A stretch of DNA of 64,000 nucleotides, from assembly GCA_035546575.1 (NCBI GenBank), contig DASZWN010000001.1, positions 212,875 to 276,874 of the forward strand. Direction: 5' to 3'. Below the pieces are notes generated by a model. The model ran no database searches and was not told the origin of the DNA. It saw only the letters and a list, made by a program, of their open reading frames with translations. Positions 3,813 to 37,568 of the stretch are shown here, one piece after another. Position 1 is the first letter of the stretch. The number at the start of each line of letters is the position of its first letter. The position numbers and the translations under genes are program-made. Origin of the DNA: Minisyncoccota bacterium (GTDB lineage Bacteria; Patescibacteriota; Minisyncoccia; Phycocordibacterales; SBAW01).

Positions 3813-3822
3813 AATCAATCAT

Positions 3823-4755: not shown

Positions 4756-4761
4756 GAAAAT

Positions 4762-6390: not shown

Positions 6391-6463
6391 AAAATAGTTG
6401 GGTTGAGATTTAAGGCAATTTCAGGTATCTTTTGTCTGTAATTGCCCTCGTGCAGTTAACTAT

Positions 6464-6534: not shown

Positions 6535-6544
6535 CAAAATACCT

Positions 6545-21806: not shown

Positions 21807-21896
21807 CCTTGTGGTATACTCGACCAGGTTCTATTTCACTCATGAATCCTTCACGCCTGAGCGTGCACACTTACAAAGTTAGCTAACACTCTATAT

Positions 21897-22766
21897 ATGA
21901 AAACAAGCACAGCTGCAATTGTCGTTATTGTCCTTCTGCTCCTGATTGGCGGCGGCTGGTGGTATTATGCTGGCAAGGCGCCGGCAACTACGACGCCTCC
22001 CACAACGGAGACTCCGCTCGCAACAACCGCATTTGCTTGCGACGCAGGCAAATCTATTGGCGCAACGTTTTACACCGGGCGCGCCGACATTGTACTGAGC
22101 GATGGCCGCACGCTTTCACTCCCGCAAACACAATCAGGCTCCGGTATCCGCTATGCTGCTACCGATGAGTCGGTGATCTTTTGGGGCAAAGGCAACACGG
22201 CTTTTGTAGAGGAAGGGGCTGATCAGCGTCAGACGTATACCGGCTGCATTCTTGTCTCGCCAGACCCGTCAAACACACTCAGCCAAATTTACGCAACCTC
22301 GACGCTTGGGTTTAGTTTGCGTACTCCGGCTGGTTACATGCCGCTCGCATACACCTATCAAGCGCTCGGGCCAAACAAGGGAATTAAAGGTGTAAAGTTT
22401 ACTATCCCGGCAACCTCGGCAACTGGCACCAACCTTTCTAAAGACACCTACATCAGTGTAGAAGAGCTCCCAAATTCAACTACCTGCTTAGCATCTGAGT
22501 TCCTGGAACCGGGCGCAAAAGCGATTACGTTTACCGATGCGGGCGTCGACTACTCGGCAGCAACGTCAAGCGACGCGGGTGCGGGCAACCTCTACGATGA
22601 GGCCGTATTCTCTATCCCGGGCACCAGCCCGTGCATTGCCGTGCGCTACTTTATCCACTCAACGCAGTTTGCTAATTATCCGGCAGGCAGCGTTGTCGAG
22701 TTTAGCCGCGAGGCGGTCATCAACGAGTTCGACGCAATCCGCCGCAGTCTGGTAATCGGCCGCTAG
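21897..22766 (+). CDS. Membrane-anchored protein with N-terminal MliC-like (lysozyme-inhibitor fold) domain, paralog A
   Basis: AFACDAGKSIGATFYTG...SGSGIRYAATDESVIFWGKGNTAFV resembles MliC domain; paralogous to 23477..24343. Confidence 0.55.
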   Translation: MKTSTAAIVVIVLLLLIGGGWWYYAGKAPATTTPPTTETPLATTAFACDAGKSIGATFYTGRADIVLSDGRTLSLPQTQSGSGIRYAATDESVIFWGKGNTAFVEEGADQRQTYTGCILVSPDPSNTLSQIYATSTLGFSLRTPAGYMPLAYTYQALGPNKGIKGVKFTIPATSATGTNLSKDTYISVEELPNSTTCLASEFLEPGAKAITFTDAGVDYSAATSSDAGAGNLYDEAVFSIPGTSPCIAVRYFIHSTQFANYPAGSVVEFSREAVINEFDAIRRSLVIGR

Positions 22767-22808
22767 CCCGTCCAGGAAAAAGAAAGCGCGTAATAGTACA
22801 CTAGGTAG

Positions 22809-23459
22809 GTGAGCCAAAAGTATCTATATATCGCAGCTATAGCGGTACTCCTCGCACTCGCGACCTTTGTGGGCCTGTATCTCCGTATCCAGTTTGAGAC
22901 CAGGCAGTATATCTATTCAAGCGTCGAGAGCGCACCCACAACGCAAGTGGCGCTGGTGCTTGGAGCGTCGGTGATGCGCAACGGTACGCTCTCGCCGGTC
23001 CTTGAGGAGCGGGTCGACAAAGCAGTTGAGCTCTATCGCATGCATAAAGTATCCAAAATTTTGATGACCGGCGACAACAGCACCATTGCCCACAACGAGG
23101 TAGAGCCGGTGCGCCGTTACTTGCTTGCGGCAGATGTTCGGCCGGAGGATATCTTTTTGGACCATGCAGGGTTTGATACCTACTCAAGTATGTATCGCGC
23201 ACGCGATGTCTTTGCAGTGACCTCGGTCACCATTGTGACGCAACCGTTCCACCTGCCGCGCGCGGTATATATTGCTAGAGAGCTCGGGCTTAATGCGGTG
23301 GGTATCGAGGCGGGGGAGCCGGGTAAATATCTGTACAACTACGCGCGCGAGGCGCCAGCTTCTATCAAGGCTGAGCTCGACCTCCTGTTTTACCGAATCC
23401 CCAAGTATTTAGGCCCTCAATTCCCTATAACCGGTACCGGTACCACCACTTGGGAGTAG
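22809..23459 (+). CDS. SanA/YdcF (DUF218) family protein
   Basis: N-terminal TM then DUF218 core (VALVLGASV...KILMTGDNST...FDTYSSMYRAR). Confidence 0.65.
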   Translation: MSQKYLYIAAIAVLLALATFVGLYLRIQFETRQYIYSSVESAPTTQVALVLGASVMRNGTLSPVLEERVDKAVELYRMHKVSKILMTGDNSTIAHNEVEPVRRYLLAADVRPEDIFLDHAGFDTYSSMYRARDVFAVTSVTIVTQPFHLPRAVYIARELGLNAVGIEAGEPGKYLYNYAREAPASIKAELDLLFYRIPKYLGPQFPITGTGTTTWE

Positions 23460-23476
23460 CTGTTATACTTAAGGGT

Positions 23477-24343
23477 ATGAACTCGATTAATCTTCGCGTT
23501 ATCTTTATCGGACTGTTTGCGATATTAGTACTTGGAGTTGGTGGGTTTTATCTGTGGAACAAGCTCGGAGCGCGCACGGTGCCGCCGCTCTCGTCGGTTG
23601 CCTATACCTGCGATGCTGGCAAAACAATACAAGCGGACTTTTATGAAAAGAGCGTCAAAATCGTACTCAGCGACGGGCGCGAGTTCTCGCTCCCGCAGAT
23701 GGTCTCGAGCGTAGGCGACCGCTACACCAACGCAGAAAAATCGATCGTGTTTGAGCGCGACGGCGACACCGCGCATGTGGGCGAGGGCTCATCGGAGATA
23801 CCAACCTACAGTAACTGCACCGCGGCGGGCAGCGAGGCAGCCTCGATGGGCACCTATACCTCAACCGCAGCATCATCGACGCCGGGCTTTACTGTAAAAT
23901 ATCCAAAAACATTCTCGCTCAACAGTGCGTATGTGAACGAGACCTTCCCTAAAAAGCCTATCAGCGGCATCAAGCTCACTGTCCCGGAGACGATGGCTAC
24001 CGGTACAAACCTCTCCAGTGACACAGGCCTCTCGGTAGAGTGGCTTCCGAATGCTCGTAACTGTACCGGCGATATTTTTGTAGCCGAAAATGTTAAAGCA
24101 CAAAAAGTAACCGAAAACGGCGTCAGTTACTCGGTAGCCACGACAAGCGGTGCAGGTGCGGGCAACCTCTACGAGGAGACCGTGTATGCTATCTCGGGCT
24201 CCAAGCCATGCACTGCCGTGCGCTACTTTGTACACTCAGGCAATATCGGCAATTATCCTGCGGGCACCGTGACCGAGTTCGACAGGGCAGGGCTCATGGC
24301 CCAGTTCGACAAAATCCGCCAGTCGCTCACGCTCAGCAACTAA
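23477..24343 (+). CDS. Membrane-anchored protein with N-terminal MliC-like domain, paralog B
   Basis: YTCDAGKTIQADFYEKSVKIVLSDGREFSLPQ...VGDRYTNAEKSIVFERDGDTAHV; same architecture and C-terminal domain as 21897..22766. Confidence 0.55.
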   Translation: MNSINLRVIFIGLFAILVLGVGGFYLWNKLGARTVPPLSSVAYTCDAGKTIQADFYEKSVKIVLSDGREFSLPQMVSSVGDRYTNAEKSIVFERDGDTAHVGEGSSEIPTYSNCTAAGSEAASMGTYTSTAASSTPGFTVKYPKTFSLNSAYVNETFPKKPISGIKLTVPETMATGTNLSSDTGLSVEWLPNARNCTGDIFVAENVKAQKVTENGVSYSVATTSGAGAGNLYEETVYAISGSKPCTAVRYFVHSGNIGNYPAGTVTEFDRAGLMAQFDKIRQSLTLSN

Positions 24344-24360
24344 TTATAAAAAGTAGAAGG

Positions 24361-24386
24361 CCCCGCGCGGAATGGTCCGCGCGGGG
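24361..24386. terminator. GC-rich palindromic hairpin (CCCCGCGCGGaatggtCCGCGCGGGG) at left border of island
   Basis: Perfect 10-bp stem between convergent genes. Confidence 0.55.
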
Positions 24387-24402
24387 CTATTGTATTGATT
24401 GG

Positions 24403-24870
24403 TCAGATGTTGCCGTCGATCAGGTCGCGATGCAGGAACGTCAGCGCGTTGAAGCATGCGTTGCCGATCGACTTCCAGAACTTGCGCATCTTCTGCCGAC
24501 GGGCAAGCCGGAGCTCCTCGGCGGTTGGTATGTAGACCGTCGTCTTGCCCGAGATAATGTTCTCGCGAGTCCGACGCAGCACCTGCATGAGGTGCGAATG
24601 CGTCGTCTCCTTGGCATCGTTGAAGCTGGGGATGCTGTCGTAACGCAGCGGCCGGCCTTCGTTCGCTGTGGCGAGGATGGCCGGCCCCAGGTACATCACG
24701 CCCAGATTCCGCATGGTCTGCTCTGCGCAGGCCAGGTTGGGATTCCAGAAGTCACGGGCCCTGTATTGGAGCCAGTTGTCTTCGTTGCGGAGCTTGCCGA
24801 TGAGCTGGTCGATCTCGGCGAGCCCTGTCGGGGCAAAGGCGAGAACGGGGATAGTGCCGTCTGCAGCCAT
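24403..24870 (-). CDS. Hypothetical protein (155 aa) of unknown function
   Basis: AGGAGA SD 7 nt upstream of ATG at 24870; high GC; no recognisable motif. Confidence 0.5.
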   Translation of the reverse strand: MAADGTIPVLAFAPTGLAEIDQLIGKLRNEDNWLQYRARDFWNPNLACAEQTMRNLGVMYLGPAILATANEGRPLRYDSIPSFNDAKETTHSHLMQVLRRTRENIISGKTTVYIPTAEELRLARRQKMRKFWKSIGNACFNALTFLHRDLIDGNI

Positions 24871-24991
24871 GGATATTTCTCCTGTTTCGAGTTGCCGTTC
24901 AGTACAAAAAGTCTTGCTATACAGTACCGCAAAACGATGCAATGTCAATATATAGAAAATCCCGGCCGCTTGGTGTGCGGCCGGGGAAGGG

Positions 24992-25306
24992 TCATAAAAA
25001 ATTTTCGCTCGGTTTGTTTTTCTCCGACTCAGCCTTCAGCTTCTTGAGCATGGCCTGAGCCTTTTTCATTGCCGCCTCAAGGATCTTCATGGCCTCGTCG
25101 ACGACGGCTGCCGCCTGCTGGTAGGACATGTTGCCGCTGCTGCCGTAGGGCGCTTCGCCCCTTGCCTGGAGCAGATGGAACGCCCTCTGGCTGCTGTGCA
25201 AAAAGATGTCCTCAGCAGCCTGATCAATAAGATCGGGGCTTTGAACAACGAGCTCTTTGCCTGGCTTGGGTTTGTTGGGAAACAATTGGTAAACCTTCGC
25301 GCTCAC
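24992..25306 (-). CDS. Hypothetical protein (104 aa) with Lys/Ala-rich C-terminal helix
   Basis: GGAGG SD then GTG; C-terminus AMKILEAAMKKAQAMLKKLKAESEK predicted coiled. Confidence 0.4.
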   Translation of the reverse strand: MSAKVYQLFPNKPKPGKELVVQSPDLIDQAAEDIFLHSSQRAFHLLQARGEAPYGSSGNMSYQQAAAVVDEAMKILEAAMKKAQAMLKKLKAESEKNKPSENFL

Positions 25307-25379
25307 GATTCGCCTCCGTCTTACACTGTCTATTGTAGACAATACAGAAAAATATTCATGACGGCAAATAAAAAGTAGC

Positions 25380-25404
25380 CGCGCGAGGGAGTCCCTCGCG
25401 CGGT
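25380..25404 (-). terminator. Palindromic hairpin terminator (CCGCGCGAGGGAgtCCCTCGCGCGG) followed by T-run on minus strand
   Basis: Perfect 12-bp stem; serves the minus-strand genes 25406..25600 and upstream. Confidence 0.5.
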
Positions 25405-25405
25405 G

Positions 25406-25600
25406 TTACTGCTCTTCTACCCCAAAGATGAAGTAGAGTCCCTTTCGTGTCAGGTCGACCCAGATAACGAGCAGGGCGATCTGCAGGGCAACGATGCCCA
25501 CCTGTATGGCTGCTTCGCCCAAGCCCCAGGGGAGAGCCTGAGCCAGGTCTTGCTTGGTCTGCAAAACCTGCAGCCAAAAATAGTCCCATGCGTCGTTCAT
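25406..25600 (-). CDS. Small single-TM membrane protein (64 aa)
   Basis: GGGAGGAG SD before ATG; MNDAWDYFWLQV...VGIVALQIALLVIWV hydrophobic helix. Confidence 0.4.
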   Translation of the reverse strand: MNDAWDYFWLQVLQTKQDLAQALPWGLGEAAIQVGIVALQIALLVIWVDLTRKGLYFIFGVEEQ

Positions 25601-25713
25601 TGACTCCTCCCGATGTGCGTTCGATAGGCACTGTAGCAAAACTACAGTGATTTGCTACTAGGGTAGCAATTTGGCATAGTGCTCTGTGGAATAGTGGAGA
25701 AAAGGAGAGACGG

Positions 25714-26523
25714 ATGTACAACACAGCACACGTGTACGACCTGTCGTTCGTCGCTCCCACGCGGAAGCCACGGACAAAACCTCAGATCGTCTTTACGCTT
25801 GATGAGGAGCTCCTTAGCGAGCTCAATAACCGCCTACAACATCTGCTGCGCAGAGTAAACGCGGCAAGATACTGCGGAAGAGAGGTGCAGTTTTGGTATC
25901 CAACTCCAGACCTGTTCGGCCGCATCGAGTTTGGATTCGAGAAATGCGGATTAATGACCAAGCACGATGGCGATGTAAGCTTGCGGATCGAGTTGAGCGA
26001 GGAGATGCTATTCTGCTCTACTTTGACAATAAACCTGCTCGCGCATGCACTCATTGTGCCATTTGAGGGCCGCAAACTCTCAAACCGCCCTCAGCTGATC
26101 GACCTAGAGACTCTTTGCGATCGCGATCGGTTGCAAGGCTACGGCCATGACATAGGCGGCTATGTGTCGGGTGGAGTGAATGCCTGGCTCCGAAAGCAGG
26201 GAACGCAGGTTCCCGACGACAGGTACAGCATTCCTGTACCTGAGGAGGTTATTACCGCCATGCGCCACGCATGGTACGCGGTAGCAGCCGAGGATCAAAA
26301 ACGCTGGGCGAGCGAGTGCGGAGGGCGTATAGCAAACGACGGGCGCTTCATGCTCGAGTGCTTTGGGAATGCGTGCGACGTCGCAATCTATCCGGATAAT
26401 GCTGTCGCAGACGAGAAGGGTTCAGTCCCGTTCAGTTGCCACAACCTCGACCGCCCCGACCAGCAAATTACGCTGATCGCTGGCCTGGCAAAGTTGTGTG
26501 AGCTGGTTCGTAAAGAAGAGTAG
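25714..26523 (+). CDS. Hypothetical protein (269 aa)
   Basis: AAGGAGA SD 6 nt before ATG; Cys/His-containing, no family recognised. Confidence 0.55.
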   Translation: MYNTAHVYDLSFVAPTRKPRTKPQIVFTLDEELLSELNNRLQHLLRRVNAARYCGREVQFWYPTPDLFGRIEFGFEKCGLMTKHDGDVSLRIELSEEMLFCSTLTINLLAHALIVPFEGRKLSNRPQLIDLETLCDRDRLQGYGHDIGGYVSGGVNAWLRKQGTQVPDDRYSIPVPEEVITAMRHAWYAVAAEDQKRWASECGGRIANDGRFMLECFGNACDVAIYPDNAVADEKGSVPFSCHNLDRPDQQITLIAGLAKLCELVRKEE

Positions 26524-26532
26524 AAAATAACA

Positions 26533-26564
26533 GGCCGCCCTAGCGATAGGGCGGCCTTTCTTCT
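26533..26564. terminator. Bidirectional hairpin terminator (AGGCCGCCCtagcgatAGGGCGGCCT + TTCTTCT)
   Basis: Between convergent genes 25714..26523 and 26585..26881. Confidence 0.55.
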
Positions 26565-26584
26565 GCGGGGCAATTGTATGAACT

Positions 26585-26881
26585 TTAGTGCTTGCTCGGC
26601 GGCTGACCCCAGTCTTCCCCGAGTACGCCGCGAATAAACTCCTTCGTCCTGGCGAGCCGCATTGCGGTGCGGCCTTCCATCACGGCAACCTCAGCGGCGC
26701 TGAAGCCCCAGAATTCCCTCATGGCGTCGAGTTGCCGGCGCTGATGCTCGGCCGTGTCCTTGTGCCCAGCCTCTTCGTTGATAAGGTAGGCCGAGTAGTG
26801 GCTCATGTAATGATCCTCCTGCTCCTCAAGGGGCCAGGCCTTCATTTCCTTGAGAGTCACAAAACCTTGTGCGGTAGACAT
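26585..26881 (-). CDS. Hypothetical protein (98 aa)
   Basis: AAGGAG SD 7 nt before ATG at 26881. Confidence 0.5.
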   Translation of the reverse strand: MSTAQGFVTLKEMKAWPLEEQEDHYMSHYSAYLINEEAGHKDTAEHQRRQLDAMREFWGFSAAEVAVMEGRTAMRLARTKEFIRGVLGEDWGQPPSKH

Positions 26882-26950
26882 GCTGCGGCTCCTTTCGCTG
26901 CTCTAAACCCAATCTAGCAAAAACAGGGTGCTTTTGATAGGGTAGGAGCC

Positions 26951-27460
26951 ATGGACCCGGAAGCAATGCTAAAAGGGCGCATGGCCGAGGCTTTAGTTGA
27001 AGAGATGCTCAAAAAAGCGGGCAACACTGTGTATCGCTTTGGGTATGAATCTGTCATTCAAAATCTTGTACAAGCTGGCGAAGTATTTGACCGATATACA
27101 GAGGTGGGGGAGAAGCTTAGAGCCATTCCAGATTTTGTTGTAATCGACAAAAACGGTAGACCAGCGTTTGTAGAAGTAAAGTTCCGATGGAATTCTGAGA
27201 TCCACGCTGACGATGTGGCGCGCCTTGAAAAGATAGAAAAGTATTGGCGCGCCGCAGTAATCTTTGTTAATTGTATAGAAAAACCATTTTTTAGAATTTC
27301 AGAACCCCCGTATCTTTCAGCAGATAAGCTTCTGCAATTAAAACCGCTCACATCAATCTCAGGGTGGAATGTAACTCCTGAATTAATAGAAGAGTATGAA
27401 AGAGTGGCACAGAAATACTTTGCTCCGACGCTAGTTACTCCATCGCAGAAGGGAAAGTAG
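26951..27460 (+). CDS. PD-(D/E)xK nuclease superfamily protein (YraN/Mrr-cat/Hjc-like core)
   Basis: AEALVEEMLKKAGNTVYRF ... IPDFVVIDKNGRPAFVEVKFR = helix + D ... (E)VK catalytic pattern of YraN/Mrr-type endonucleases; AT-rich. Confidence 0.55.
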   Translation: MDPEAMLKGRMAEALVEEMLKKAGNTVYRFGYESVIQNLVQAGEVFDRYTEVGEKLRAIPDFVVIDKNGRPAFVEVKFRWNSEIHADDVARLEKIEKYWRAAVIFVNCIEKPFFRISEPPYLSADKLLQLKPLTSISGWNVTPELIEEYERVAQKYFAPTLVTPSQKGK

Positions 27461-27496
27461 TAAAATTCCCCGGATTTGATAGGGTAGAGACAAAAT

Positions 27497-28447
27497 ATGC
27501 TTGGAAAAGTGGAAAAAGTTGATCTACGTAAGGCGTGGCCTCATGAGGCCCTAGATTTTACACGCTGGCTTGCTGAAGAGGCAAATCTCCGCTTGCTCTC
27601 AGAAGAGCTTGGGATTGAATTGGTGCACCTTGAGACCGAGGCAGGTGTGGGACGTTACAATGTCGATATCTTGGCTGAGGAACTTGGATCAGGGAAAAAG
27701 ATTATTATTGAAAATCAACTAGAGATAACAAATCACGATCATTTGGGCAAATTGATCACTTATGCATCTGGATACGATGCAAATATGGTCATTTGGGTTG
27801 TACGGGATGCTCGCGAGGAACATAGACAAGCTATTGATTGGCTTAACGAGCATACCGACGAGAATCTCGCATTTTTCTTAGTACAGTTAGAGCTTTGGCA
27901 GATTGGGAATTCTCCTTTCGCGCCAAAATTCAATATTATTTCAAAACCTAATGATTGGGCAAAAGTGGTAAAACGTTCTTTTGAGGGAGGCGAAATAACG
28001 GAGACCAAAGCACAACAGCTTAGGTTCTGGAATGCCTTTCAAGAATATGCAAAGAAAGAGGGAGTTAATTTTAGGTTTGAAGAACCTCAACCTAAGCATT
28101 GGTTCAATATCTATCTCAGCACGCATTACGCTCTTATTTCTCTCTCCTTAAATTCTTTTGAGAGAGCAATCCGCACAGAGTTTTATATCCGCTCAAGTAA
28201 AGAACTATATACGTACCTCGAAGGACACCGCGAGACTATAGAAAAGGAGATAGGAGCAAAATTGGTGTGGATGCCACTTGAAGGGAAGAAAGCGAGTCGA
28301 ATAAAAATAGAACGTACGGGTGATATAGATGAAGAACGTAACTGGGAAGAGTATTTTGCATGGTGTTTAAAACAAGCTCAAGTATTTGCACGTGTATTTC
28401 CTAAATACATTAAGGAGTTTGATAAAAATAAGAAGTCTAGAAAATAA
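27497..28447 (+). CDS. Two-domain protein: N-terminal restriction-endonuclease-like domain (D...ENQLE) fused to C-terminal DUF4268
   Basis: GRYNVDILAEE...KKIIIENQLEITNHDHLGKLITYA then QQLRFWNAFQEYAKK...HWFNIYL...IKIERTGDIDEERNWEEYFAWCL matching DUF4268 pattern. Confidence 0.6.
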   Translation: MLGKVEKVDLRKAWPHEALDFTRWLAEEANLRLLSEELGIELVHLETEAGVGRYNVDILAEELGSGKKIIIENQLEITNHDHLGKLITYASGYDANMVIWVVRDAREEHRQAIDWLNEHTDENLAFFLVQLELWQIGNSPFAPKFNIISKPNDWAKVVKRSFEGGEITETKAQQLRFWNAFQEYAKKEGVNFRFEEPQPKHWFNIYLSTHYALISLSLNSFERAIRTEFYIRSSKELYTYLEGHRETIEKEIGAKLVWMPLEGKKASRIKIERTGDIDEERNWEEYFAWCLKQAQVFARVFPKYIKEFDKNKKSRK

Positions 28448-28995
28448 TGGACTTGCTAAAGAAGACCGGCACACATAGTGATAATCGAAGGAATGACAAC
28501 GCGGACAAGAAACAGCTTTTCCCCAAGGAAAAGCATCCGCATACTGCGAGCTACCATAAAGAACAGTGGGCTTTTATCTCTGACACCGGCTTGCGTGAGA
28601 ATATTGCTTACCAGATGCAGTACCTGGAGTTTTTAATTAACCTCTACAATGACTATCAGCTCTATCTCACACTCGAGTCTCTGCTATGCAAAGACATACT
28701 CGCCACAGTGGGCGGGGTAGTGGAGGCAGCACTTTTTGACATGCTCCAAGATGCCAAGACAAAAGCCGGTATGCCGATGGGTACAAGGACTGACTTCACC
28801 GCCCTCCTAGGGGAGGCGTATCACAGCTTTAACTTTATAGACAAAGATATGTGGCACTACTTCCACGAGCTGCGCAAAGTCCGCAATTACGTACACCTAA
28901 AAGCCGCTGATTTCCAAGAGCATACGGCCTATACAGTGGAAGAGGCCAACGAAGCCATAAAAAAGCTCGAACAGTTTCGGCAGCAATTTGTGTAG
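28447..28995 (+). CDS. Hypothetical protein (182 aa), start overlaps stop of upstream DUF4268 gene
   Basis: TAATGG overlap (operon with 27497..28447); no motif. Confidence 0.5.
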   Translation: MDLLKKTGTHSDNRRNDNADKKQLFPKEKHPHTASYHKEQWAFISDTGLRENIAYQMQYLEFLINLYNDYQLYLTLESLLCKDILATVGGVVEAALFDMLQDAKTKAGMPMGTRTDFTALLGEAYHSFNFIDKDMWHYFHELRKVRNYVHLKAADFQEHTAYTVEEANEAIKKLEQFRQQFV

Positions 28996-29058
28996 CGAAA
29001 AAACTCTGCCGGTGCTAGGCTAAATTCAAATTCCAAGCGTCCCATCCGATTTCCAAGT

Positions 29059-30690
29059 TTGAACCATATGAAAATCTCTAGAATAAAAGTAAAAAACTTT
29101 CGCTCTGTTAAGGAGGTAGAGATTACACCTTCGGACTTCAATGTTTTTGTTGGACAAAACAACCACGGTAAGACGAACTTCTTTGAGGCGTTAAACTGGT
29201 TTTTTAAAGGCCCCACCAAGGGCGAGGGACTTGATGTCATTCGCTATCGCGGTGCCAGTGAAGACGACGAAGTGATGGTTGAGGTTGAATTTTCCGGTGC
29301 ACAAGAGGGAGCACAGAAGATGAAGAATGAAGCGAACAAGACAAAAATCCTGGGCGTTGTCGGTGAAAGCGACACTATAACCGTGGTGCGTAGCAGTGCC
29401 ACAGATGCAAAAAAGCGGGTACTCTTAATCAATGGAGATGTGAAGAAAAATCCCACTGGATTTGATACTGCGCTCAATGATTTCTTGCCGTCATTTGAGT
29501 ACGTTAGTACACTGGCTAGTCCGCTTGACACCGTCAAGTACAAATCCAACACACCGATAGCGAACATGCTTTCGGGAGTACTATCGGCCATTCTTGAGCA
29601 AGACGAGAAATATGCTGAGTTCAAGAAGAAGTTTGATGAACTTTTTACCGATCCGGGTTCACGCGTCCACGTTGAACTCAATAAACTTAGTGGCGAAGTA
29701 AAGGCGTACCTTGTAAAACAGTTTCCTGACTGCGAAAAAGTGGTGTTCAGCGTTACAGCCCCTCTGTTTGAAGACCTCCTCAAGAGCTTTGACGCTGAGA
29801 TAGATGATGGCGTTTACACAACTGCGAGTGAAAAAGGAGACGGTATGCAGCGCGCGTTAATGCTCGCTATCATACAAACGTATGCCGATTTCCGACGCGA
29901 GCACGAAGAAACCAGCAAATACTTCCTTTTCTTCATTGACGAGGGAGAGCTTCATTTGCACCCGACGGCTCAAAGAAAACTCAAAAACGCCCTGTTTGAT
30001 CTTGCTCAGGGAGGTGATCAAATATTTCTCAATACCCATTCCTCCGTGCTTGTCTCTGAGGAAGCCGAGGGCCAGACAATTTATAAGGTGGAAAAAATGG
30101 ATAAACAGACGAGCATTATGCCCATCAAGACAGAAGAAAAGCCAAGTGTGGTGTACGAATTACTTGGCGGTAGCCCGGCAGATCTACTATTGCCGAGCAA
30201 CTTTCTAATCGTGGAGGGTAAAAGTGAGTATGAGTTTATTTCCCGTGTTACGTCACGTTTTTATAGCGGTCAAAAGCAAATACAGGTTATTTACGCGGAG
30301 GGCGACCACGGACGCCAGCGCGAATCAATGGACAGTATCAATAAGGCTTTTGTACCTCTTCATGCCAGTCCTGTCTACAAAGAACGGCTGGTGATCCTGT
30401 GCGATACACCGAACCGCACACGCACAGCTGACTTCGACGCCTTCAAGAGGGCATACAGCTATCTAGAGACGAACGAACAACTTTTTGTCATCCCCAATGA
30501 GCGTCTCGAAGAATACTATCCGGCGCCCTGGAAGAAGACTGTAGCGGAGAGCCAAGCCATGAACGGAGAAAAGAACAGGAAGCTTGATCTTGCCCGAGAA
30601 GTAGGAAGCAGCATCACAAAAGAGCAGTTTGAATCCGAAATGAGCATTATTTATGGTGCTCTTAAAGCATGTTGGAATAAGGCGTATTAA
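29059..30690 (+). CDS. OLD-family / AAA_15-type ABC ATPase with C-terminal Toprim-like domain (GajA/AriAB/class-1-OLD-like)
   Basis: MKISRIKVKNFRSV..FNVFVGQNNHGKTNFFEAL (Walker A), EKGDGMQRALMLA (signature), FLFFIDEGELHLHP (Walker B), LNTHSS (H-loop), C-terminal NFLIVEGKSEYEFI (Toprim Glu) and acidic patch LVILCDTP...ADFD. Confidence 0.65.
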   Translation: MNHMKISRIKVKNFRSVKEVEITPSDFNVFVGQNNHGKTNFFEALNWFFKGPTKGEGLDVIRYRGASEDDEVMVEVEFSGAQEGAQKMKNEANKTKILGVVGESDTITVVRSSATDAKKRVLLINGDVKKNPTGFDTALNDFLPSFEYVSTLASPLDTVKYKSNTPIANMLSGVLSAILEQDEKYAEFKKKFDELFTDPGSRVHVELNKLSGEVKAYLVKQFPDCEKVVFSVTAPLFEDLLKSFDAEIDDGVYTTASEKGDGMQRALMLAIIQTYADFRREHEETSKYFLFFIDEGELHLHPTAQRKLKNALFDLAQGGDQIFLNTHSSVLVSEEAEGQTIYKVEKMDKQTSIMPIKTEEKPSVVYELLGGSPADLLLPSNFLIVEGKSEYEFISRVTSRFYSGQKQIQVIYAEGDHGRQRESMDSINKAFVPLHASPVYKERLVILCDTPNRTRTADFDAFKRAYSYLETNEQLFVIPNERLEEYYPAPWKKTVAESQAMNGEKNRKLDLAREVGSSITKEQFESEMSIIYGALKACWNKAY

Positions 30691-30695
30691 AGGTC

Positions 30696-31964
30696 ATGGA
30701 TAAGAAAAAACTTAAAAAAATATTGAATGAAACAAAAGCCTGGTCAAATCAGTCTGACAGTCTTGTCGCTGTTCAAAAAACAGGAGGTGGATTAGAGAAG
30801 GATGTCCAAACAGCATTGGGTTGGAAAGGAGGTCGTGTCGTCTACGACCGTGTTAGAGGTTATAAAGTGCAAGTGGATGCAGCCTACCCAGACGTAAGTA
30901 GGCCTGAGGTGGTTGTATCTGTTACCTACACTGATCCGGACTTACGAGGTCATAGCAATGAAAATAAATTGCATCTGAAAGTGGGAGAGCTTGCCTTACT
31001 AAAATTTGCGCACCCTCATATAAAAGTCATTTTAGTTCTTGGAGGCTCTCAAGAGGCTTGGCTTGCCTATGTACTTAAGGCATTTGAATATTTTTTCGAC
31101 GAAGTAATTTGTCTATGGAGCGAGAACGGATTAGCTCGTCTAGCGGTTATTAAAGAAAATCACAAATCGGTAAAATTGAAACACGTCGATTTTTGGGAAC
31201 AGCTCAATATTGAATGGGGGAAAATTAAATTCTACACAGAAGCAGATTTTGTTATTCCCCACAGTCTCTTTCGATACAAGACGCTTGATGACTTTAGGAG
31301 CCAAAAACCAAAAGTTTTCCATCCTTCGTTAATAAAAAATGAAGTAGCCCGTCTATGTATGCAGAGGTCGAAAGATTATAGCGGTACCGAATGGGATTCA
31401 TACATCCAAGACCGATGGCATAACATTGAAATGTCGCGAAATTACTTTAACCCAATGGAGGCGTTGATAGAGATTTTGCTTACAGATTCCAAGTTAAAAT
31501 TTGAAGGAGGTGTGGCGCGAGATATTCCAGTTCCATCGTTTCTACACCAGCTTGGAATGAAGGGGACTCGTGTCTCGGAAGATTTTGTCCTTTTTTCCAA
31601 GAAGCTCAACAAGAAAGTTTATATTCAATGTAAATCATCTGGTGGCGGAAGAGAGCAACACGGTAAAAACATTCAAAATCGCACAAAAGAACAAATTACA
31701 CGTAGTATTCTATACAGAAGTTCGGTCAAAGAAGGAAAAATGTACCTAGAAGATAAGAATTTCTATTGGATTTCTATTTTAGATGGCAATTGGTCGATTA
31801 ACGGTAGGGAGCCTTTTAAATATATCCACATGTTGCAGATTGCTGGATACGACAAGATATACGGAGTCCAAGACTTAATCCTTGAGGATGGCTTGACTCC
31901 AAAAACAAAGAATAATCCCTTACTCGATCATCTAATAAATGATCTCGATTGTGAGTTAATTTAA
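30696..31964 (+). CDS. Putative nuclease (422 aa) with restriction-endonuclease-like PD-(D/E)xK motif in C-terminal half
   Basis: SEDFVLFSKKLNKKVYIQCKSS (D ... QCK as in Mrr-cat/type II REases); N-terminal half has a degenerate similar element (VQVDAAYPD...EVVVSVTY); 6 nt downstream of ATPase gene; converges on methyltransferase. Confidence 0.5.
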   Translation: MDKKKLKKILNETKAWSNQSDSLVAVQKTGGGLEKDVQTALGWKGGRVVYDRVRGYKVQVDAAYPDVSRPEVVVSVTYTDPDLRGHSNENKLHLKVGELALLKFAHPHIKVILVLGGSQEAWLAYVLKAFEYFFDEVICLWSENGLARLAVIKENHKSVKLKHVDFWEQLNIEWGKIKFYTEADFVIPHSLFRYKTLDDFRSQKPKVFHPSLIKNEVARLCMQRSKDYSGTEWDSYIQDRWHNIEMSRNYFNPMEALIEILLTDSKLKFEGGVARDIPVPSFLHQLGMKGTRVSEDFVLFSKKLNKKVYIQCKSSGGGREQHGKNIQNRTKEQITRSILYRSSVKEGKMYLEDKNFYWISILDGNWSINGREPFKYIHMLQIAGYDKIYGVQDLILEDGLTPKTKNNPLLDHLINDLDCELI

Positions 31965-34900
31965 GGTTTGCGAAATATTACGATAGACTCTCTGACTGGA
32001 ATTTTACCAAACTGCTTCATCTGTTGAGGACTATTTCCTTTCATTCTGGTAACGAATATTTTTTCTGCTTTGAATCCTACTTTTTCTGCAAGAAGAAGAA
32101 GTAAATGGTCAACAGGTACTACCACGCCGCCCCAGCGAGAGTTTCCGACCACAAAGGCTGCCTTCCCTCCCTTACGCATAACATCAAATATGTTTTTCAG
32201 GTTTTCCTCAAGGTCGGCAAAATAACCCGCAATCATTTGAGGTATTTTACTGTTGTTGCCATCAGTTAGTTCCATAGCAGAGATAAGCTTCTGTACTTCG
32301 GGTATAGACTCTGAAATATCGAGATCTAGGTCGCTATCCGTGTGAGATCTGAAAGTTGATCTAACAAGTGTCTTATATTCTTGTTGGCTTTTTACAAGCG
32401 ATAGTAAAGATAGCTCCGCTTTTTGTTGAGCTATATAGTTGTTTCTATTTAAATACGGAGGTGAGGTTATAACAAAGTCAATTGAATTTTTCTTAAGTTT
32501 GAATTTCTTCGCGTCTCCCAAGAATATTTGATGGCGGGAGTCGTTTCTCTTGGATTCTTTTGTCACAATTTCTATATCCTCAAGCATTTTGTTAATTTGC
32601 ACCTTAAATAACGGTAATATATCTGATCCAGGATTTACAATTTTTATATTTAATTTTTGGAGTCCTATACTATCTGGATTAAGCATGTAACGATAGTGCG
32701 ATCCATGTTTTCTAATTTGACTCACATCCTCCAATATTCCAATTAATCCCAAAAGAAGGAGATCCTGTTCCTGTCCTGAGAGAGCAGAATTGCTAATTTG
32801 ATCTTTAATTTGCTTGACTTGATTCCAGATCTGAAAAGAAAATGCCTTACTTAGGAACTCAGGGAAAAGATCTTCCTTTTTAGATTCTCTGCTTTCTACG
32901 TCTAAATTAGATAAGAACCCGTTTATTTTTTTGAAATTTTTTATATCCAAGGAAGATATTTTAATCTTGCTAACCCATATCATTAGCGGGGATATGTCAA
33001 AAGATATTGTATTAATATTTCTTTTTTTGCCTGTGAGTATGGTAGTTCCTGAACCTACAAAAGGATCAAGTATCGTAGCGTTTCTTTTTTTGTTTACGTT
33101 CAAGTGCTCTATAAGAAAATTTACCAATGGCTCAGAATAGCCTTGAGTGAAAGGAAACCACCGATGCACGGGTAGCTTTTTGTTTATTTGAAAAGTAACA
33201 GATCTGCGTAACTCCGGTTTATCTTCCTGCAGTTTTTGGTACTTCTTTATATCGATAGGGACAAATTTCTCTAGAGATGTTTTCTCACTTCCATACCTTT
33301 TTTCTTTTAAATTATTCTTAGTTGGTAAGGACTTTCTGTGAGAATTTGCAATATCATCTCTAATAAATTGATATTCTGTTGGGGAAAGTTTAAAGACTGA
33401 AGCCACAACATGGTCGAGCTTATCCCAACTCTTTTGATTTTCTGGATTTTTATATAGATCGGTAGTTATTTTTTGAGCTAAATTCCTTTGCTCACGATCA
33501 AACTGGGGCAGTCGAATTGATTGCAGATGATGTTTTAAGAGTCTAAACCAGCCACTATGGAGTTGTGTTCCGTTGTGTCGAAGTGCAAACTCCATTACTG
33601 GAGTGCTAAGTACTGCGCTCCAGAATTTTAGATCTGTTTCGCTCATTGCCCTATTGACCAAGGCGTAGCCGGAACCGATCGCAGTGTCTCCGGTTATGTC
33701 TGCCGCAAATTGAGAAGAAGGCATCATTTCTTTCACTAAGATTTTTGGTGTCTGAGGTAAATGTAAATTTTGGACTCGGCTAAACGCATACCAAGAGGCA
33801 TTTTTATCAAGATTCCTACCAGAGAGTAATTGCTTGTTAGATAATAAATATGCGTATATATTCGGAGCCATTTTTTTCAGGGTATTTTCTTCTATAACCT
33901 TAACTTTGCCCGTAGAAGAGATTTCATACGGATAAATTAACTTGTATTGTTCCCTTGAAATAAAGAGTCTTTTTATCTCCTCTCCTCCAACAAACGGCCT
34001 CAAAAGGTCTTGCTCTAAGTCTGTTTCGGCGTCTTTTTTCAACACAAAAACATCATTTTGGCCCGTGCGGAGACCTTGAAGAATGTTGGGGAATAAATGG
34101 CTAATTAAAGGAAGATTGGGGTTATTTATCTTTTGAATAATACTTTGAGCTTGATCGGTCGCTAAATTCCACGGAAACTTCTCTAAGATGTTAGTGTTTA
34201 AACTGAAAGTTTTGGATTTGTTTAGGTCGTTAGCAGATGTGATTCCTGTTGGAAAGTGGGTAACTGTAAACTTTTTTGCTGCCGGAAGCTTCGTAAAGGT
34301 AAGAACTGTGGTATAGGTTGTATGGTCTGGAAAGACTTGAGAATCTTTGAAGTCAATAATATTGAGTATTCTCACATCTTTTGCCAGTCGGGCGCATATA
34401 GCCTTTCCATATTCAGAATGCATGAATTTACTTGTGGTGATGTAACAACCAATTCCTCCATCAGTGAGACTTCTTATGGCATGTTCAATAAAAATTATAG
34501 ACAGGTCAAAATTCCCTGACGTTATATCCGGATACTTTTCCTTTATTAATCCGACGTAATTTTCTGATAGGTTCTGAGACCTAACATAGGGCGGATTTCC
34601 AATCAATATGTCGAACTTCTCGTTTTCGGATTCAGAGGAAAACAAAGACTCTTTTTGCAAAGAAAGCAGAGAATCAGAGTGTTGAATTTTAGCCTCCAGC
34701 TTAAGCGCATCATTCAATATTTTTGCAAACCTTGTCGATGTTTTGTCCACGTCATTTCCATGAAGAGATACGTCTTTACCAAAGAAGTCTCTTGCACTGG
34801 AAAGAAAAACTCCAGTACCACAAGCAATGTCTCCAACTTTCTGGACTTTTCGTCCTGTTCTGTGCAATTTATTCCAATGTTGCCACGCTGTTTGAGTAAC

Positions 34901-35152
34901 TTTGTCTGCCAGCCATTTTGGTGTGAATACTGCACCGGAATTTTTCTGTTCCTCACTAGACAACATTGATGTTCTCAGTGAAGCAAGGGCGTCTTCAATA
35001 CCGTGTATACTTATTAATTCTGAAAAGTTATTCAGATCTTGTTTGGATAGATCTTGTATTTCTCTTAACAGTCGAGGAGAAAGGCTCATCCCCTCTATAT
35101 TCGTTCGAGAGCTTTTAGGTCGATGGGGGAGGGTAGGAACGGATTTACTCAT
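31961..35152 (-). CDS. Two-module DNA methyltransferase: N-terminal gamma-class N6-adenine MTase with TaqI-like target-recognition domain, plus C-terminal second MTase module
   Basis: Module 1: VGDIACGTGVFL (motif I), ILIGNPPYV (motif IV), TaqI-C-like region (LLRPFVGGEEIKR..., WYAFSRVQNL). Module 2: ILDPFVGSGTTIL (FxGxG) and FVITSPPYLNR (SPPY). Start taken at ATG 35152 (TTG 35158 used by ORF track); TATAAT 7 nt upstream. Confidence 0.75.
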   Translation of the reverse strand: MSKSVPTLPHRPKSSRTNIEGMSLSPRLLREIQDLSKQDLNNFSELISIHGIEDALASLRTSMLSSEEQKNSGAVFTPKWLADKVTQTAWQHWNKLHRTGRKVQKVGDIACGTGVFLSSARDFFGKDVSLHGNDVDKTSTRFAKILNDALKLEAKIQHSDSLLSLQKESLFSSESENEKFDILIGNPPYVRSQNLSENYVGLIKEKYPDITSGNFDLSIIFIEHAIRSLTDGGIGCYITTSKFMHSEYGKAICARLAKDVRILNIIDFKDSQVFPDHTTYTTVLTFTKLPAAKKFTVTHFPTGITSANDLNKSKTFSLNTNILEKFPWNLATDQAQSIIQKINNPNLPLISHLFPNILQGLRTGQNDVFVLKKDAETDLEQDLLRPFVGGEEIKRLFISREQYKLIYPYEISSTGKVKVIEENTLKKMAPNIYAYLLSNKQLLSGRNLDKNASWYAFSRVQNLHLPQTPKILVKEMMPSSQFAADITGDTAIGSGYALVNRAMSETDLKFWSAVLSTPVMEFALRHNGTQLHSGWFRLLKHHLQSIRLPQFDREQRNLAQKITTDLYKNPENQKSWDKLDHVVASVFKLSPTEYQFIRDDIANSHRKSLPTKNNLKEKRYGSEKTSLEKFVPIDIKKYQKLQEDKPELRRSVTFQINKKLPVHRWFPFTQGYSEPLVNFLIEHLNVNKKRNATILDPFVGSGTTILTGKKRNINTISFDISPLMIWVSKIKISSLDIKNFKKINGFLSNLDVESRESKKEDLFPEFLSKAFSFQIWNQVKQIKDQISNSALSGQEQDLLLLGLIGILEDVSQIRKHGSHYRYMLNPDSIGLQKLNIKIVNPGSDILPLFKVQINKMLEDIEIVTKESKRNDSRHQIFLGDAKKFKLKKNSIDFVITSPPYLNRNNYIAQQKAELSLLSLVKSQQEYKTLVRSTFRSHTDSDLDLDISESIPEVQKLISAMELTDGNNSKIPQMIAGYFADLEENLKNIFDVMRKGGKAAFVVGNSRWGGVVVPVDHLLLLLAEKVGFKAEKIFVTRMKGNSPQQMKQFGKIPVRESIVIFRKP

Positions 35153-35381
35153 AGGCAAATTATACTACCTCTACCACGTTCGTGGGAACACGAAACTGTG
35201 GACATACTTAATTACTTGCTTTAGGATGAGAGGCGCATTGAACCGTCTCGGATTCTCTTTATGTATCTCCCTAAGCTTTTCGATTTCTGGTCCAATTATC
35301 GCAAACACCGTTTCAAACGAGGGGGAGATTAATCCTGCCTTAAGTCCAAGTCTGGACTTCTAAATTTGCTATACTAGTGGT

Positions 35382-35861
35382 ATGGCCATACACCCCGAAG
35401 TGCAGATCGGGCATGTGCACCTGACCGTCGGGGATCTGGAGCGGTCCCTCGCTTTTTATAGGGATCTTCTGGGATTTGAGGTTACGGCACGATACGGCGA
35501 TTCAGCCGTTTTTTTGTCCGCGGGAGGCTATCATCATCACATTGCGCTCAATACCTGGGCGGGGAAGGGCGCTACACCTCCGCCACCCGGGCACACCGGG
35601 CTCTATCACCACGCTATTTTGTATCCCTCGCGCAAGGAACTCGCAAAAGTTTTTAAACGGCTCGTTGATGCGGGCTACCCTATAACCGGCGCTGCGGACC
35701 ACGGAGTGTCAGAAGCAATTTATTTAAACGACCCGGACATGATAGGGGTGGAGCTGTATGCCGACAGGCCCCGTAAAGAGTGGAAGGTAAAGAACGACGG
35801 CCAGGTGGAGATGATCACCGAGCCGCTCGACCTCGACGCGCTTTTAGTCGAGGCTGAGTAG
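35382..35861 (+). CDS. VOC-family (glyoxalase/bleomycin-resistance/extradiol dioxygenase fold) protein
   Basis: IGHVHLTVGDLERSLAFYRDLLGFEV ... HHIAL ... GVELY pattern of VOC metal-binding modules. Confidence 0.7.
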   Translation: MAIHPEVQIGHVHLTVGDLERSLAFYRDLLGFEVTARYGDSAVFLSAGGYHHHIALNTWAGKGATPPPPGHTGLYHHAILYPSRKELAKVFKRLVDAGYPITGAADHGVSEAIYLNDPDMIGVELYADRPRKEWKVKNDGQVEMITEPLDLDALLVEAE

Positions 35862-35897
35862 GCAACTTTTCAGGGCTGATGTAGTTTTAAAAGACTT

Positions 35898-36686
35898 ATG
35901 AAAGCCCTTCGCAGTTTTGCTATCGAGTTTTTGGTTTTTGGGCTCAAGGAGGCCCAGGCCTGCATTTTTGCCGGCTCATTTTTTGCTATCCTTTTTCTCT
36001 CTAACCACATCCCGCTCTTTGGGCTGGCACGGTACGACTTTATATTCTTGGCGGCTGTCGCTATCCAGGCAGTGATGTACTTCACGAAGCTGGAGACAAA
36101 AGACGAGGTAAAGGTAATTTTTATGTTCCATATTATCGGCCTCGTGCTCGAGCTCTACAAAACAAGCGCGTTTGTGGGCTCGTGGAGCTACCCGGAAGAC
36201 GGCTTGTTTAAAATTGCGCAGGTGCCGCTGTACAGCGGCTTTATGTACGCGGCGGTGGGGAGCTACTTGGCCCAGGCGTGGAAGATACTGAAGGTTGAGA
36301 TGGAAGGCTACCGCAACTACAAGCTTATGATCGCGCTATGCGCGCTTATCTACCTGAACTTTTTTACCAACCACTTTATATACGATTTCCGCTGGTTTCT
36401 TATATTGGCAGTGTTCAGTATTTTCTGGCGTACAAAAATACACTTCACCGTCCTGCACCACGTGCGCACGATAAGCCTCAATCTCTCGTTTTTGCTGATA
36501 GCGTTTTTTATCTGGGTCGCGGAGAATATCTCCACCTACCTGGGCGCGTGGCAGTACCCAAACCAAGTGCACGTGTGGAGCATTGTCTCGACCCAAAAGA
36601 TAACCTCGTGGTTTCTGCTCGTGATAATCAGCTTTATCCTGGTGGCCTACCTTAAGCACTATAAAAAGGATGTATTAAAAGCCTAA
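35898..36686 (+). CDS. DUF817-family multi-pass membrane protein
   Basis: Seven or so TM helices, LELYKTSAFVGSWSYPEDG segment typical of DUF817. Confidence 0.55.
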   Translation: MKALRSFAIEFLVFGLKEAQACIFAGSFFAILFLSNHIPLFGLARYDFIFLAAVAIQAVMYFTKLETKDEVKVIFMFHIIGLVLELYKTSAFVGSWSYPEDGLFKIAQVPLYSGFMYAAVGSYLAQAWKILKVEMEGYRNYKLMIALCALIYLNFFTNHFIYDFRWFLILAVFSIFWRTKIHFTVLHHVRTISLNLSFLLIAFFIWVAENISTYLGAWQYPNQVHVWSIVSTQKITSWFLLVIISFILVAYLKHYKKDVLKA

Positions 36687-36689
36687 ACA

Positions 36690-36716
36690 AAAAAGCCCCT
36701 CGCGGGGCTTTTTGTT
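36690..36716. terminator. Bidirectional intrinsic terminator
   Basis: aaaaAGCCCCTCGCGGGGCTttttg. Confidence 0.6.
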
Positions 36717-36870
36717 ATTTATTGCTGTCGCCGCCGATCTGGATATTGAGGCCGCCGCCGTCTTTTGGAGCGCCCGGGCCGTAGGTCTGGTACCACCATA
36801 CGCCGCCGCCCACCAGCAGGACCAAGATTACGATCAGGATAATAGTATTGATAGGACTCGTGTTGTTCAT
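36715..36870 (-). CDS. Possible small membrane protein (51 aa: MNNTSPINTIILIVILVLLVGGGVWWYQTYGPGAPKDGGGLNIQIGGDSNK)
   Basis: ATG-initiated ORF ending at the terminator; one TM helix plus Gly-rich tail; below ORF-track cutoff. Confidence 0.35.
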   Translation of the reverse strand: MNNTSPINTIILIVILVLLVGGGVWWYQTYGPGAPKDGGGLNIQIGGDSNK

Positions 36871-36941
36871 TGTGTTACAGCCTTACTAATAAGGAGCACC
36901 TATGTATAATACACCTCATGCATATAACAATACCGCACAAG

Positions 36942-37208
36942 ATGTCGCAGGCGGCGGCCGTGGCACGCGTGACAAGAGCACTTAATGAGAACCGCGCACA
37001 AATAGCCCAACATGCCACTATTACTAAAGAGGAATGGGAGGGGAATACGCTCAGCTTTGTCGTATCGATACAGGGCAAAGAAATATCGGGTACACTCGAT
37101 GTCACTGAGGCCGATTACGTACTCGACGCCAAGCTGCCGTTGCTCTGGCGCATGTTCGAGGGCCGGATAGAGTCGCAAATAGCAGCAGAAATTAAAAAGA
37201 TGTCGTAA
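36942..37208 (+). CDS. Polyhydroxyalkanoic-acid-system family small protein (TIGR02610-like), 88 aa
   Basis: MSQAAAVARVTRALNENRAQIAQ...WEGNTLSFVVSIQGKEISGTLDVTEADYVLDAKLPLLWRMFEGRIESQI matches family pattern; internal ATG chosen over the longer listed ORF. Confidence 0.5.
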   Translation: MSQAAAVARVTRALNENRAQIAQHATITKEEWEGNTLSFVVSIQGKEISGTLDVTEADYVLDAKLPLLWRMFEGRIESQIAAEIKKMS

Positions 37209-37245
37209 CTCTGTACGCCCTCGGGCGTAGGAGTATACTTATAGT

Positions 37246-37563: not shown

Positions 37564-37568
37564 TATTT

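Follow-up and report, generated by a model that had tools for sequence, protein, structure and literature searches.

The DNA analyzed here is a 64,000-nucleotide window of the Minisyncoccota contig DASZWN010000001.1 (hereafter the window), and the region in question, at 24.35–35.38 kb, lies between a cluster of sanA and MliC-domain genes and a VOC gene. Its AT-rich right part encodes a small nuclease-like protein (p169), a nuclease-DUF4268 protein (S11), a HEPN-fold protein (p182), an OLD-family ATPase, and a restriction endonuclease (p422) with a fused double DNA methyltransferase. A first-pass annotation, made from the letters alone, had treated the whole region as one compositionally bipartite island. 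The cluster is real and foreign in composition, yet it is a mosaic of known kinds of genes and not one new system. The AT-rich stretch consists of four independent modules: A (p169 and S11), B (the HEPN gene), C (the OLD gene), and D (the restriction–modification, R-M, pair). We consider it likely that the region is a site at which defense genes accumulated, through several separate acquisitions, in the chromosome of a Paceibacteria bacterium, a member of the Candidate Phyla Radiation (CPR).

Composition and gene content of the AT-rich block

GC content was profiled in 500-bp windows against the remainder of the 64-kb window. Between 26,950 and 35,300 it averaged 0.408 (range 0.338–0.48), compared with a mean of 0.528 (standard deviation 0.031) outside the region, which places the block at z = −3.85; values below 0.47 occurred in 30 of the 32 block windows and in 8 of the 209 outside. 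The tetranucleotide L1 distance to the remainder of the window gave z scores of 6–16 at 27–35 kb, against a maximum below 2.1 outside. Uniform composition is ruled out for 26.95–35.3 kb, and the first-pass estimate of roughly 40% GC from 26.95 kb onward, against about 55% elsewhere, agrees with these measurements. The preceding segment, which had been described as GC-rich and distinct, is host-like: GC at 24,350–26,950 is 0.55–0.556 (z +0.7), GC at third codon positions (GC3) is 0.64–0.76, and the tetranucleotide z at 24–27 kb is 0.7–2.2. The compositionally foreign part is therefore 26.95–35.3 kb only. Within it, GC3 varies from gene to gene (p169 0.39, S11 0.36, HEPN 0.59, OLD 0.50, p422 0.36, and methyltransferase 0.34; flanking host genes 0.57–0.70), and the block holds at least three compositional classes. 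The dense run of defense-type functions that had been noted in it was borne out by matches to the PADLOC models PDC-S11 and Old and by the Type II R-M pair.

Module A opens with p169 (26951–27460, plus strand; 169 aa), the first AT-rich gene. Its sequence contains the motif PDFVV...FVEVK, which, together with weak, sub-threshold matches to UPF0102/YraN and VRR_NUC, supports its identification as a small PD-(D/E)xK nuclease, in line with the nuclease part of the earlier label. A 60% homolog in a Paceibacteria-type metagenome-assembled genome (MAG; locus L044) matches VRR_NUC at E 9e-4. That gene is host-like in composition, overlaps a GTPase gene, and lies 1.5 kb from sanA, beside a type I R-M insertion. 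The 13-nt sequence TTTGATAGGGTAG occurs twice, without mismatch, at 26933–26945 and 27475–27487, 5–9 nt upstream of the p169 and S11 starts. Because chance would produce about one such pair in 13.4 kb, the repeat was rejected as an insertion scar around p169, and a shared promoter, 5′ untranslated region, or operator is suggested by its position alone.

The second gene of the module encodes S11 (27497–28447, plus strand; 316 aa), a stand-alone nuclease-DUF4268 protein. It matches the PADLOC model PDC-S11 (PDLC04911) at E 7e-119 over residues 2–307 of 316 and model positions 5–314 of 318, and DUF4268 at E 1.5e-25. Residues E48, D57, and E72-N-Q74-L-E76 are invariant across 72 S11 homologs, a pattern consistent with a PD-(D/E)xK-type site; sequence and profile searches of the PDB with S11 gave no match. 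Its genomic context was surveyed in 80 metagenomic loci carrying 50–64% homologs, with HEPN relatives sought by tblastn at 1e-3. The neighbors were heterogeneous, and neither a p169 nor a HEPN homolog lay beside the S11 homolog in any of the 80 loci; a conserved S11–p169 operon was rejected on this count. The family is also found on bacterial and archaeal plasmids. In 2 of the 80 loci (L109, 6001–8900; L110, 4918–7800), the S11 homolog is followed, after a 2-nt gap or with a 10-nt overlap, by a gene for a 651–653-aa OLD-like ATPase, an arrangement that echoes the closeness of S11 and OLD in the window. DUF4268 is present in MdgA and MdgB, nucleases that defend against T4 but not against cytosine-T4 (PMC12366544), as well as in GmrSD fusions (PMC4619093). 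By analogy, S11 would most likely act as a modification-dependent nuclease.

Module B is the gene for p182 (28447–28995, plus strand; 182 aa), whose start codon shares its first base with the end of the S11 stop codon (TAATG). This is the coupled partner that had been proposed for the nuclease-DUF4268 protein, and both the DUF4268 match and the overlap with the S11 stop agree with that description. Structure predictions were made for p182 and p422, and p182 was predicted to adopt an all-alpha, four-helix HEPN fold. Its invariant residues are R143, R146, N147, H150, E77, K82, and E93, which can be read either as Rx6H from R143, with K following the arginine, or as Rx3H in R146-N-x-x-H150, with N following it; the canonical HEPN RNase site is Rx4-6H with a polar residue after the arginine (PMC3710099). 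No family library recognizes p182, and a PDB profile search also gave no match. Its relatives, about 140 clusters at 44–83% identity without a Pfam, PADLOC, or NCBIfam model, come from Patescibacteria in every source that names an organism, and none was found in IMG/VR.

In seven distinct contexts, the HEPN gene directly adjoins a nuclease-type or nuclease-candidate gene. Its neighbors are S11 in the window; an NYN gene, followed by a 272-aa gene and MmeI (L167/168); a DUF2779 gene (L169/170); HNH and PDDEXK_1 genes, with an OLD-like gene nearby (L171); GmrSD and DUF2130 genes, the latter a nuclease candidate only (L173–175); a second NYN gene, with genes for a 769-aa methyltransferase and a SWI2/SNF2 protein after it (L176–178); and a PDDEXK_4 gene, a DEAD helicase, and an MvaI/BcnI R-M pair (L179). 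In none of the seven contexts, that of the window included, does a nucleotidyltransferase-domain gene adjoin the HEPN gene, and a HEPN–MNT toxin–antitoxin pair was rejected on this basis. The GC content of the HEPN gene tracks that of its host locus (0.26 to 0.46 for the gene as the locus ranges from 0.33 to 0.52). Furthermore, the window is collinear with L168 in the order MliC297, HEPN, DUF5652, and YgjP-like gene (38579–38917 in the window), with different genes in between, among them other nuclease and R-M genes to the left and right of HEPN, and L179 likewise has the order MliC ... HEPN. Owing to this host-tracking GC content and collinearity, we regard the HEPN gene as a probable resident of the backbone, with insertions of foreign DNA on both of its sides (26.95–28.45 and 29.0–35.3 kb). 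As a separate observation, an MliC gene precedes the HEPN-centered defense clusters in both L168 and L179.

Module C is a stand-alone OLD-family ATPase (29068–30690, plus strand; 540–543 aa) with a divergent Toprim-like C-terminal domain. The first-pass label of an OLD-family ABC-ATPase/Toprim protein held for the family as a whole (PADLOC Old, E 3e-62; AAA_15, E 6e-35), while its Toprim part found no Pfam match. The best annotated phage-record match is P2 Old, at 28% identity over aa 1–387 (E 7e-32), and GajA structures align with the protein through the Toprim-initiating motif LIVEGKSE. The ATPase motifs comprise a Walker A motif (GQNNHGKT at 32), a Walker B motif (FFIDEGE at 290), and an H-loop (THSS). 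A whole-library HMMER search delimited a subfamily of about 20 representative clusters aligning over the full length, in which E383 is present in at least 90% and D446, E481, and K505 are invariant, with a spacing roughly like that of E377, D431, E480, and R487 in Ts OLD (PMC7049728). The Toprim DxD reads D-T-P in the window protein and D-(K/T)-P across the subfamily; in the alignment (residues 440–450), the distant members P0381 and P0391 keep DGD. The protein was not found in IMG/VR viral contigs. Its neighbors are the HEPN gene, 72 nt upstream, and p422; because no UvrD-like helicase, retron, or AriB gene lies beside it, we class it from sequence and context as Class 1-like.

Module D comprises p422 and the fused methyltransferase. 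p422 (30696–31964, plus strand; 422 aa) had been described as restriction-endonuclease-like, in keeping with its predicted restriction-endonuclease fold and its pairing with the methyltransferase. Two PD-(D/E)xK-like alpha/beta domains are predicted, the N-terminal one forming the second such fold. In the C-terminal domain, the invariant residues D296, Q311-x-K313, and E332 are located on strands two and three and on the helix after them. We take D296, K313, and E332 to be the D...xK...E catalytic arrangement of a Cfr10I/NgoMIV-type active site. Homologs number 241 at 50–85% identity and extend across phyla, including Hymenobacter and cyanobacteria; the Hymenobacter homolog carries the UniRef name "Restriction endonuclease". 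No Pfam or other sequence-family match was obtained for p422, PDB sequence and profile searches also gave none, and no homolog was found in plasmids. The methyltransferase (31961–35089, minus strand) is 1042–1065 aa long, the gene call giving 1042 aa and the open reading frame (ORF) remaining open to 35158, in line with the double methyltransferase of about 1063 aa reported by the first pass. Its N-terminal half is of the Eco57I/N6_Mtase, gamma type (NPPY at 188), its C-terminal half is of the N6_N4_Mtase type (FVGSG at 700, SPPY at 899), and two full-length PADLOC MTase_II models match it side by side.

Homologs of p422 were found in three unrelated contexts: one is a Hymenobacter locus (L083), another also holds a serine recombinase gene (L084), and in the third the homolog follows a ThrRS-like gene (L085/86). 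In all three, the gene is convergent with one encoding a 1013–1114-aa Eco57I/N6_Mtase plus N6_N4_Mtase protein, 41–46% identical to that of the window over its full length, and OLD is never adjacent. Because p422 always occurs with the same fused methyltransferase in these three unrelated genomes, the pair is assigned, on genomic context, as a self-contained two-gene Type II R-M cassette. Asymmetric sites are usually served by two methyltransferases fused in one chain and an endonuclease encoded on its own, and the cassette is probably IIS-like. Identities in L083, L084, and L085 are 78, 59, and 56% for p422 and 46, 46, and 41% for the methyltransferase. An endonuclease better conserved than its methyltransferase reverses the usual pattern; a swap of the target-recognition domain was rejected as the cause, because the divergence is evenly spread. 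The p422-type gene starts 4–5 nt past an unrelated upstream stop codon, that of OLD in the window (30688–30698) and that of the ThrRS-like gene in L085 (7996–8001). This suggests that the cassette carries no promoter for the p422 gene and relies on read-through transcription.

Borders, neighboring genes, and relatives

To the left of the region, at 20646–24343, sanA (22809–23459) is flanked by paralogous MliC-domain genes (21897–22766 and 23450–24343; 47% identical), which a GH18 glycosyl hydrolase gene adjoins. The best relatives of SanA come from Kaiser-, Adler-, and Nomurabacteria/Paceibacterota MAGs (60–65% identity). The enterobacterial framing implied by the names sanA and MliC was discarded, the left flank having no match in E. 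coli genomes.

Five orphan genes occupy 24.35–26.95 kb. Four GC-rich hairpins with stems of 9–13 bp, the GC-palindromic terminators already noted in the first pass, delimit them as monocistronic units. A bidirectional hairpin terminator at 24359–24388 (13-bp stem with 11 GC pairs, detected on both strands) lies between the MliC-domain gene and o181, at the left edge of the region as first annotated; the others are at 24961–24985, 25379–25403, and 26532–26557. The ORF o181 (24403–24948, minus strand; 181 aa; GC3 0.76) has that first terminator directly downstream and sub-threshold matches to DUF6197 and phrog_762. The ORF o116 (24992–25342, minus strand; 116 aa) has its own terminator at 24961–24985 and gave no match in family libraries. 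For o77 (25406–25639, minus strand; 77 aa), the call was preferred over an overlapping 134-aa ORF because the terminator at 25379–25403 lies just past the o77 stop and inside the longer frame. The gene o269 (25714–26523, plus strand; 269 aa), also called in an independent assembly, has no match in Pfam, NCBIfam, PHROG, or PADLOC and none in phages. The last host-like gene ahead of the composition break is o98 (26585–26881, minus strand; 98 aa; GC3 0.74), which was called in the assembly L001 described below and shares the hairpin at 26532–26557 with o269. None of the five has an above-threshold family match in the libraries against which it was scanned. In 80 related sanA loci from GTDB species, which are too distant to map the borders, o181 and o269 alone have homologs, one each: a 34% homolog of o181 near sanA (L015) and a 55% homolog of o269 located 5 kb from sanA (L034). 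These host-like orphans appear to form a variable, lineage-specific stretch, and their membership in the defense cluster is not demonstrable. The left half of the proposed bipartite 11-kb island thus drops out, its 2.6 kb being host-like in composition and devoid of a defense signature.

At the right border (35090–35381), an intergenic segment, GC climbs from 0.42 to 0.52 over 35,000–35,500 and returns to the host level ahead of the VOC gene; a promoter-like site for the methyltransferase lies at 35188–35159. The earlier remark that no integrase, transposase, or flanking direct repeat is present still holds: family-library scans gave no recombinase match in any ORF of the region, and a search of the left and right borders found no convincing matching repeat. 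No tRNA gene lies near the borders; the five in the window are Asp, Thr (twice), and Gln at 412–6535 and Ser at 55786–55871, so the nearest to the region are at 6.5 and 55.8 kb.

The same DNA or its products recur in two independent Logan assemblies and in an NCBI MAG. The Logan assembly L001 corresponds to 25382–38042 of the window at 100% identity and spans both junctions of the AT-rich block; L002, from a second run, corresponds to 34328–37337 at 100% identity and spans the right junction. Additionally, proteins identical to p422 and the HEPN protein are encoded on a 287-kb contig of an NCBI "Candidatus Paceibacterota" MAG. Contigs with the exact VOC protein gave only identical island copies, and the closest VOC homologs (85–86%) lie in unrelated neighborhoods. 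Among the available relatives, flank proteins are only 50–86% identical and gene order is shuffled. In one distant relative (L014), sanA, phaGR, and VOC genes lie within 3 kb, without island genes. In L044 (6575–15255), a type I R-M locus lies within 4 kb after sanA, with a DUF4917 gene between hsdM and a second hsdS; that part has a GC3 of 0.41–0.45, compared with about 0.6. The locus is another defense insertion near sanA, distinct from the one in the window.

A probable mosaic of separate acquisitions

In line with the mosaic reading, S11, the OLD gene, and the R-M pair each occur elsewhere without the others. If the modules act as their homologs do, the following roles can be proposed. The fused methyltransferase would modify both strands of an asymmetric site, while unmodified incoming DNA would be cut by p422. 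S11 may cut DNA that escapes R-M through modified bases, by analogy with MdgA, MdgB, and GmrSD-DUF4268 fusions. The OLD protein could be an ATP-dependent nuclease triggered by infection, like other Class 1 OLD proteins, P2 Old among them, and the HEPN protein a metal-independent RNase serving as a suicide or dormancy backstop, possibly restrained by the nuclease next to it, in the way that EcoprrI restrains PrrC.

Several points weigh against this account of the locus. All of the proposed mechanisms derive from homology. No empty-site relative was found, and the insertion boundaries are set by composition only. p169 may serve defense or housekeeping, its composition being foreign-like here and host-like in L044, and PDC-S11 is a candidate defense family only. 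The p182 motif appears near-canonical, with atypical spacing. The resident status of the HEPN gene is argued from composition and from synteny with two relatives (HEPN 81–83% identical), and the gene may instead have been transferred among CPR genomes of similar GC content. Residues 390–540 of the OLD protein have no Pfam Toprim or PDB sequence match, and its nuclease competence is uncertain, the second Asp of the DxD being absent.

As a bolder and less probable extension, the HEPN gene may be the resident "anchor" of a CPR chromosomal defense hotspot, beside which nucleases and R-M systems are swapped. Its product would then be an RNase backstop in the manner of PrrC, either guarded by the neighboring DNase or sensing the failure of that enzyme. 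If so, organisms in which CRISPR is largely missing would have a generic second line of immunity that is partner-agnostic.

Among the competing explanations, an obligate two-gene system made up of S11 and the HEPN protein, as a nuclease–RNase effector or a toxin–regulator pair, is unlikely. The 1-nt stop/start overlap (TAATG) would suit such a unit, as would two other loci in which the HEPN gene overlaps the upstream PDDEXK_1 gene by 11 nt or follows DUF2130 after 2 nt. However, the remaining four contexts have no overlap, with gaps of 157–179 nt after NYN or DUF2779 and of 35 nt after a lipase gene (L179). S11 is absent from all six other HEPN contexts, the two genes differ in GC3 (0.36 and 0.59), and the lack of a HEPN family member in the 80 S11-homolog loci led us to reject a conserved S11–HEPN operon.

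A joint arrival of all of 24.35–35.38 kb as a single mobile element that subsequently lost its mobility genes is quite improbable. The cluster is contiguous between housekeeping-type genes, its AT-rich part is clearly foreign, and the orphans of its left part have few homologs (o181 and o269, one each in the 80 sanA loci), all of which favor a single arrival. However, the left 2.6 kb is host-like (z 0.7), the AT-rich part falls into at least three GC3 classes, and the mid-block HEPN gene is host-like and keeps its synteny in relatives that have other genes flanking it. Moreover, the R-M pair, S11, and OLD are each found without the others elsewhere, and no integrase, tRNA gene, or direct repeat marks an insertion. 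The claim of a one-unit island is accordingly withdrawn. Of the poorly characterized anti-phage system expected here, the candidate PDC-S11 and the unannotated HEPN protein remain, the remainder being of known kinds.

A two-gene OLD system of OLD and p422, akin to GajA–GajB and leaving the methyltransferase solitary, has very little in its favor. Only 5 nt separate the OLD stop from the p422 start, and Class 2 OLD proteins act with a downstream partner (PMC7049728). Nevertheless, equally tight spacing occurs behind the ThrRS-like gene in L085, the partner of the p422 homolog in the three unrelated contexts is always the fused methyltransferase and never OLD, the predicted p422 fold is that of a restriction endonuclease and not of a UvrD-type helicase, and the GC3 of p422 (0.36) resembles that of the methyltransferase (0.34), unlike that of OLD (0.50). 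Genomic context thus rules out OLD and p422 as one system, and the functional link once drawn between them was abandoned. Finally, a chimeric join of the AT-rich segment from another organism during assembly or binning, conceivable for a MAG with an abrupt GC change of about 12 points, is extremely improbable because independent assemblies reproduce the junctions at 100% identity (L001 both, L002 the right one), the NCBI contig holds identical p422 and HEPN proteins, and a host-like HEPN gene lies inside the block.

The preferred reading, an accumulation site filled by separate acquisitions, concerns a large and mostly uncultured share of bacterial diversity, the CPR/Patescibacteria. Patescibacteria have tiny genomes with few recognized immune systems beyond R-M, and genomic islands with R-M systems have already been described in them (PMC12455944). 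The locus stacks four defense-type modules in about 8 kb of such a genome, and the window, L044 (type I R-M), L168 (MmeI), and L179 (MvaI/BcnI) together suggest that the region near sanA and MliC collects defense genes in several Paceibacteria. The candidates that emerge are the widely conserved p422 endonuclease family with its fused methyltransferase, the nuclease-DUF4268 protein PDC-S11, and the nuclease-tied HEPN family; the uncharacterized p422 family and the unannotated HEPN family are worth follow-up. Current understanding is not overturned, and the value of the locus lies in cataloguing and enzyme discovery.

Comparison with known systems

The closest kin of the R-M cassette are presumably Type IIS-like systems with fused methyltransferases, of the FokI or Mva1269I type. 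The window cassette differs in that p422 belongs to no Pfam family and that no solved structure can be linked to it by sequence. The OLD protein resembles P2 Old and the Class 1 OLD proteins of Ts and Vibrio cholerae in being encoded by a single gene of about 540 aa with no adjacent UvrD-type helicase, and in conserving the ABC-ATPase, the Toprim glutamate motif VEGxSE, and equivalents of the E, S/E, and K/R residues. It differs from them in a C-terminal domain too divergent for Pfam OLD-like_TOPRIM or PDB sequence matches, in D-(K/T)-P in place of DxD, and in its CPR host.

S11 shares with MdgA, MdgB, and PDC-S11 an N-terminal nuclease domain with invariant acidic residues and a C-terminal DUF4268, and with PDC-S11 also the single-gene format and variable neighborhoods. 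However, MdgA was reported to lack homology to PADLOC and DefenseFinder models (PMC12366544), so it possibly belongs to a different nuclease-DUF4268 family from S11.

p182 differs from PrrC and RloC in lacking an ABC-ATPase and the anticodon-nuclease N-domain, and from HEPN–MNT toxins in lacking an MNT partner. Compared with known HEPN families, it has no Pfam HEPN match, an atypical motif spacing, and a conserved 45-residue N-terminal extension, and it behaves as a resident gene around which defense genes vary. It shares a predicted four-helix fold with HEPN–MNT toxins and with the R-M-associated HEPN RNases (PrrC, RloC, and DUF4145-type; PMC3710099), as well as an invariant, near-canonical Arg/Asn/His motif and an upstream conserved Glu. 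Like them, it recurs next to DNases and R-M genes and not just beside methyltransferases. Links to R-M systems have been described for at least 16 clades of HEPN proteins, with a PrrC-like guarding model proposed (PMC3710099), and the p182 family fits this theme.

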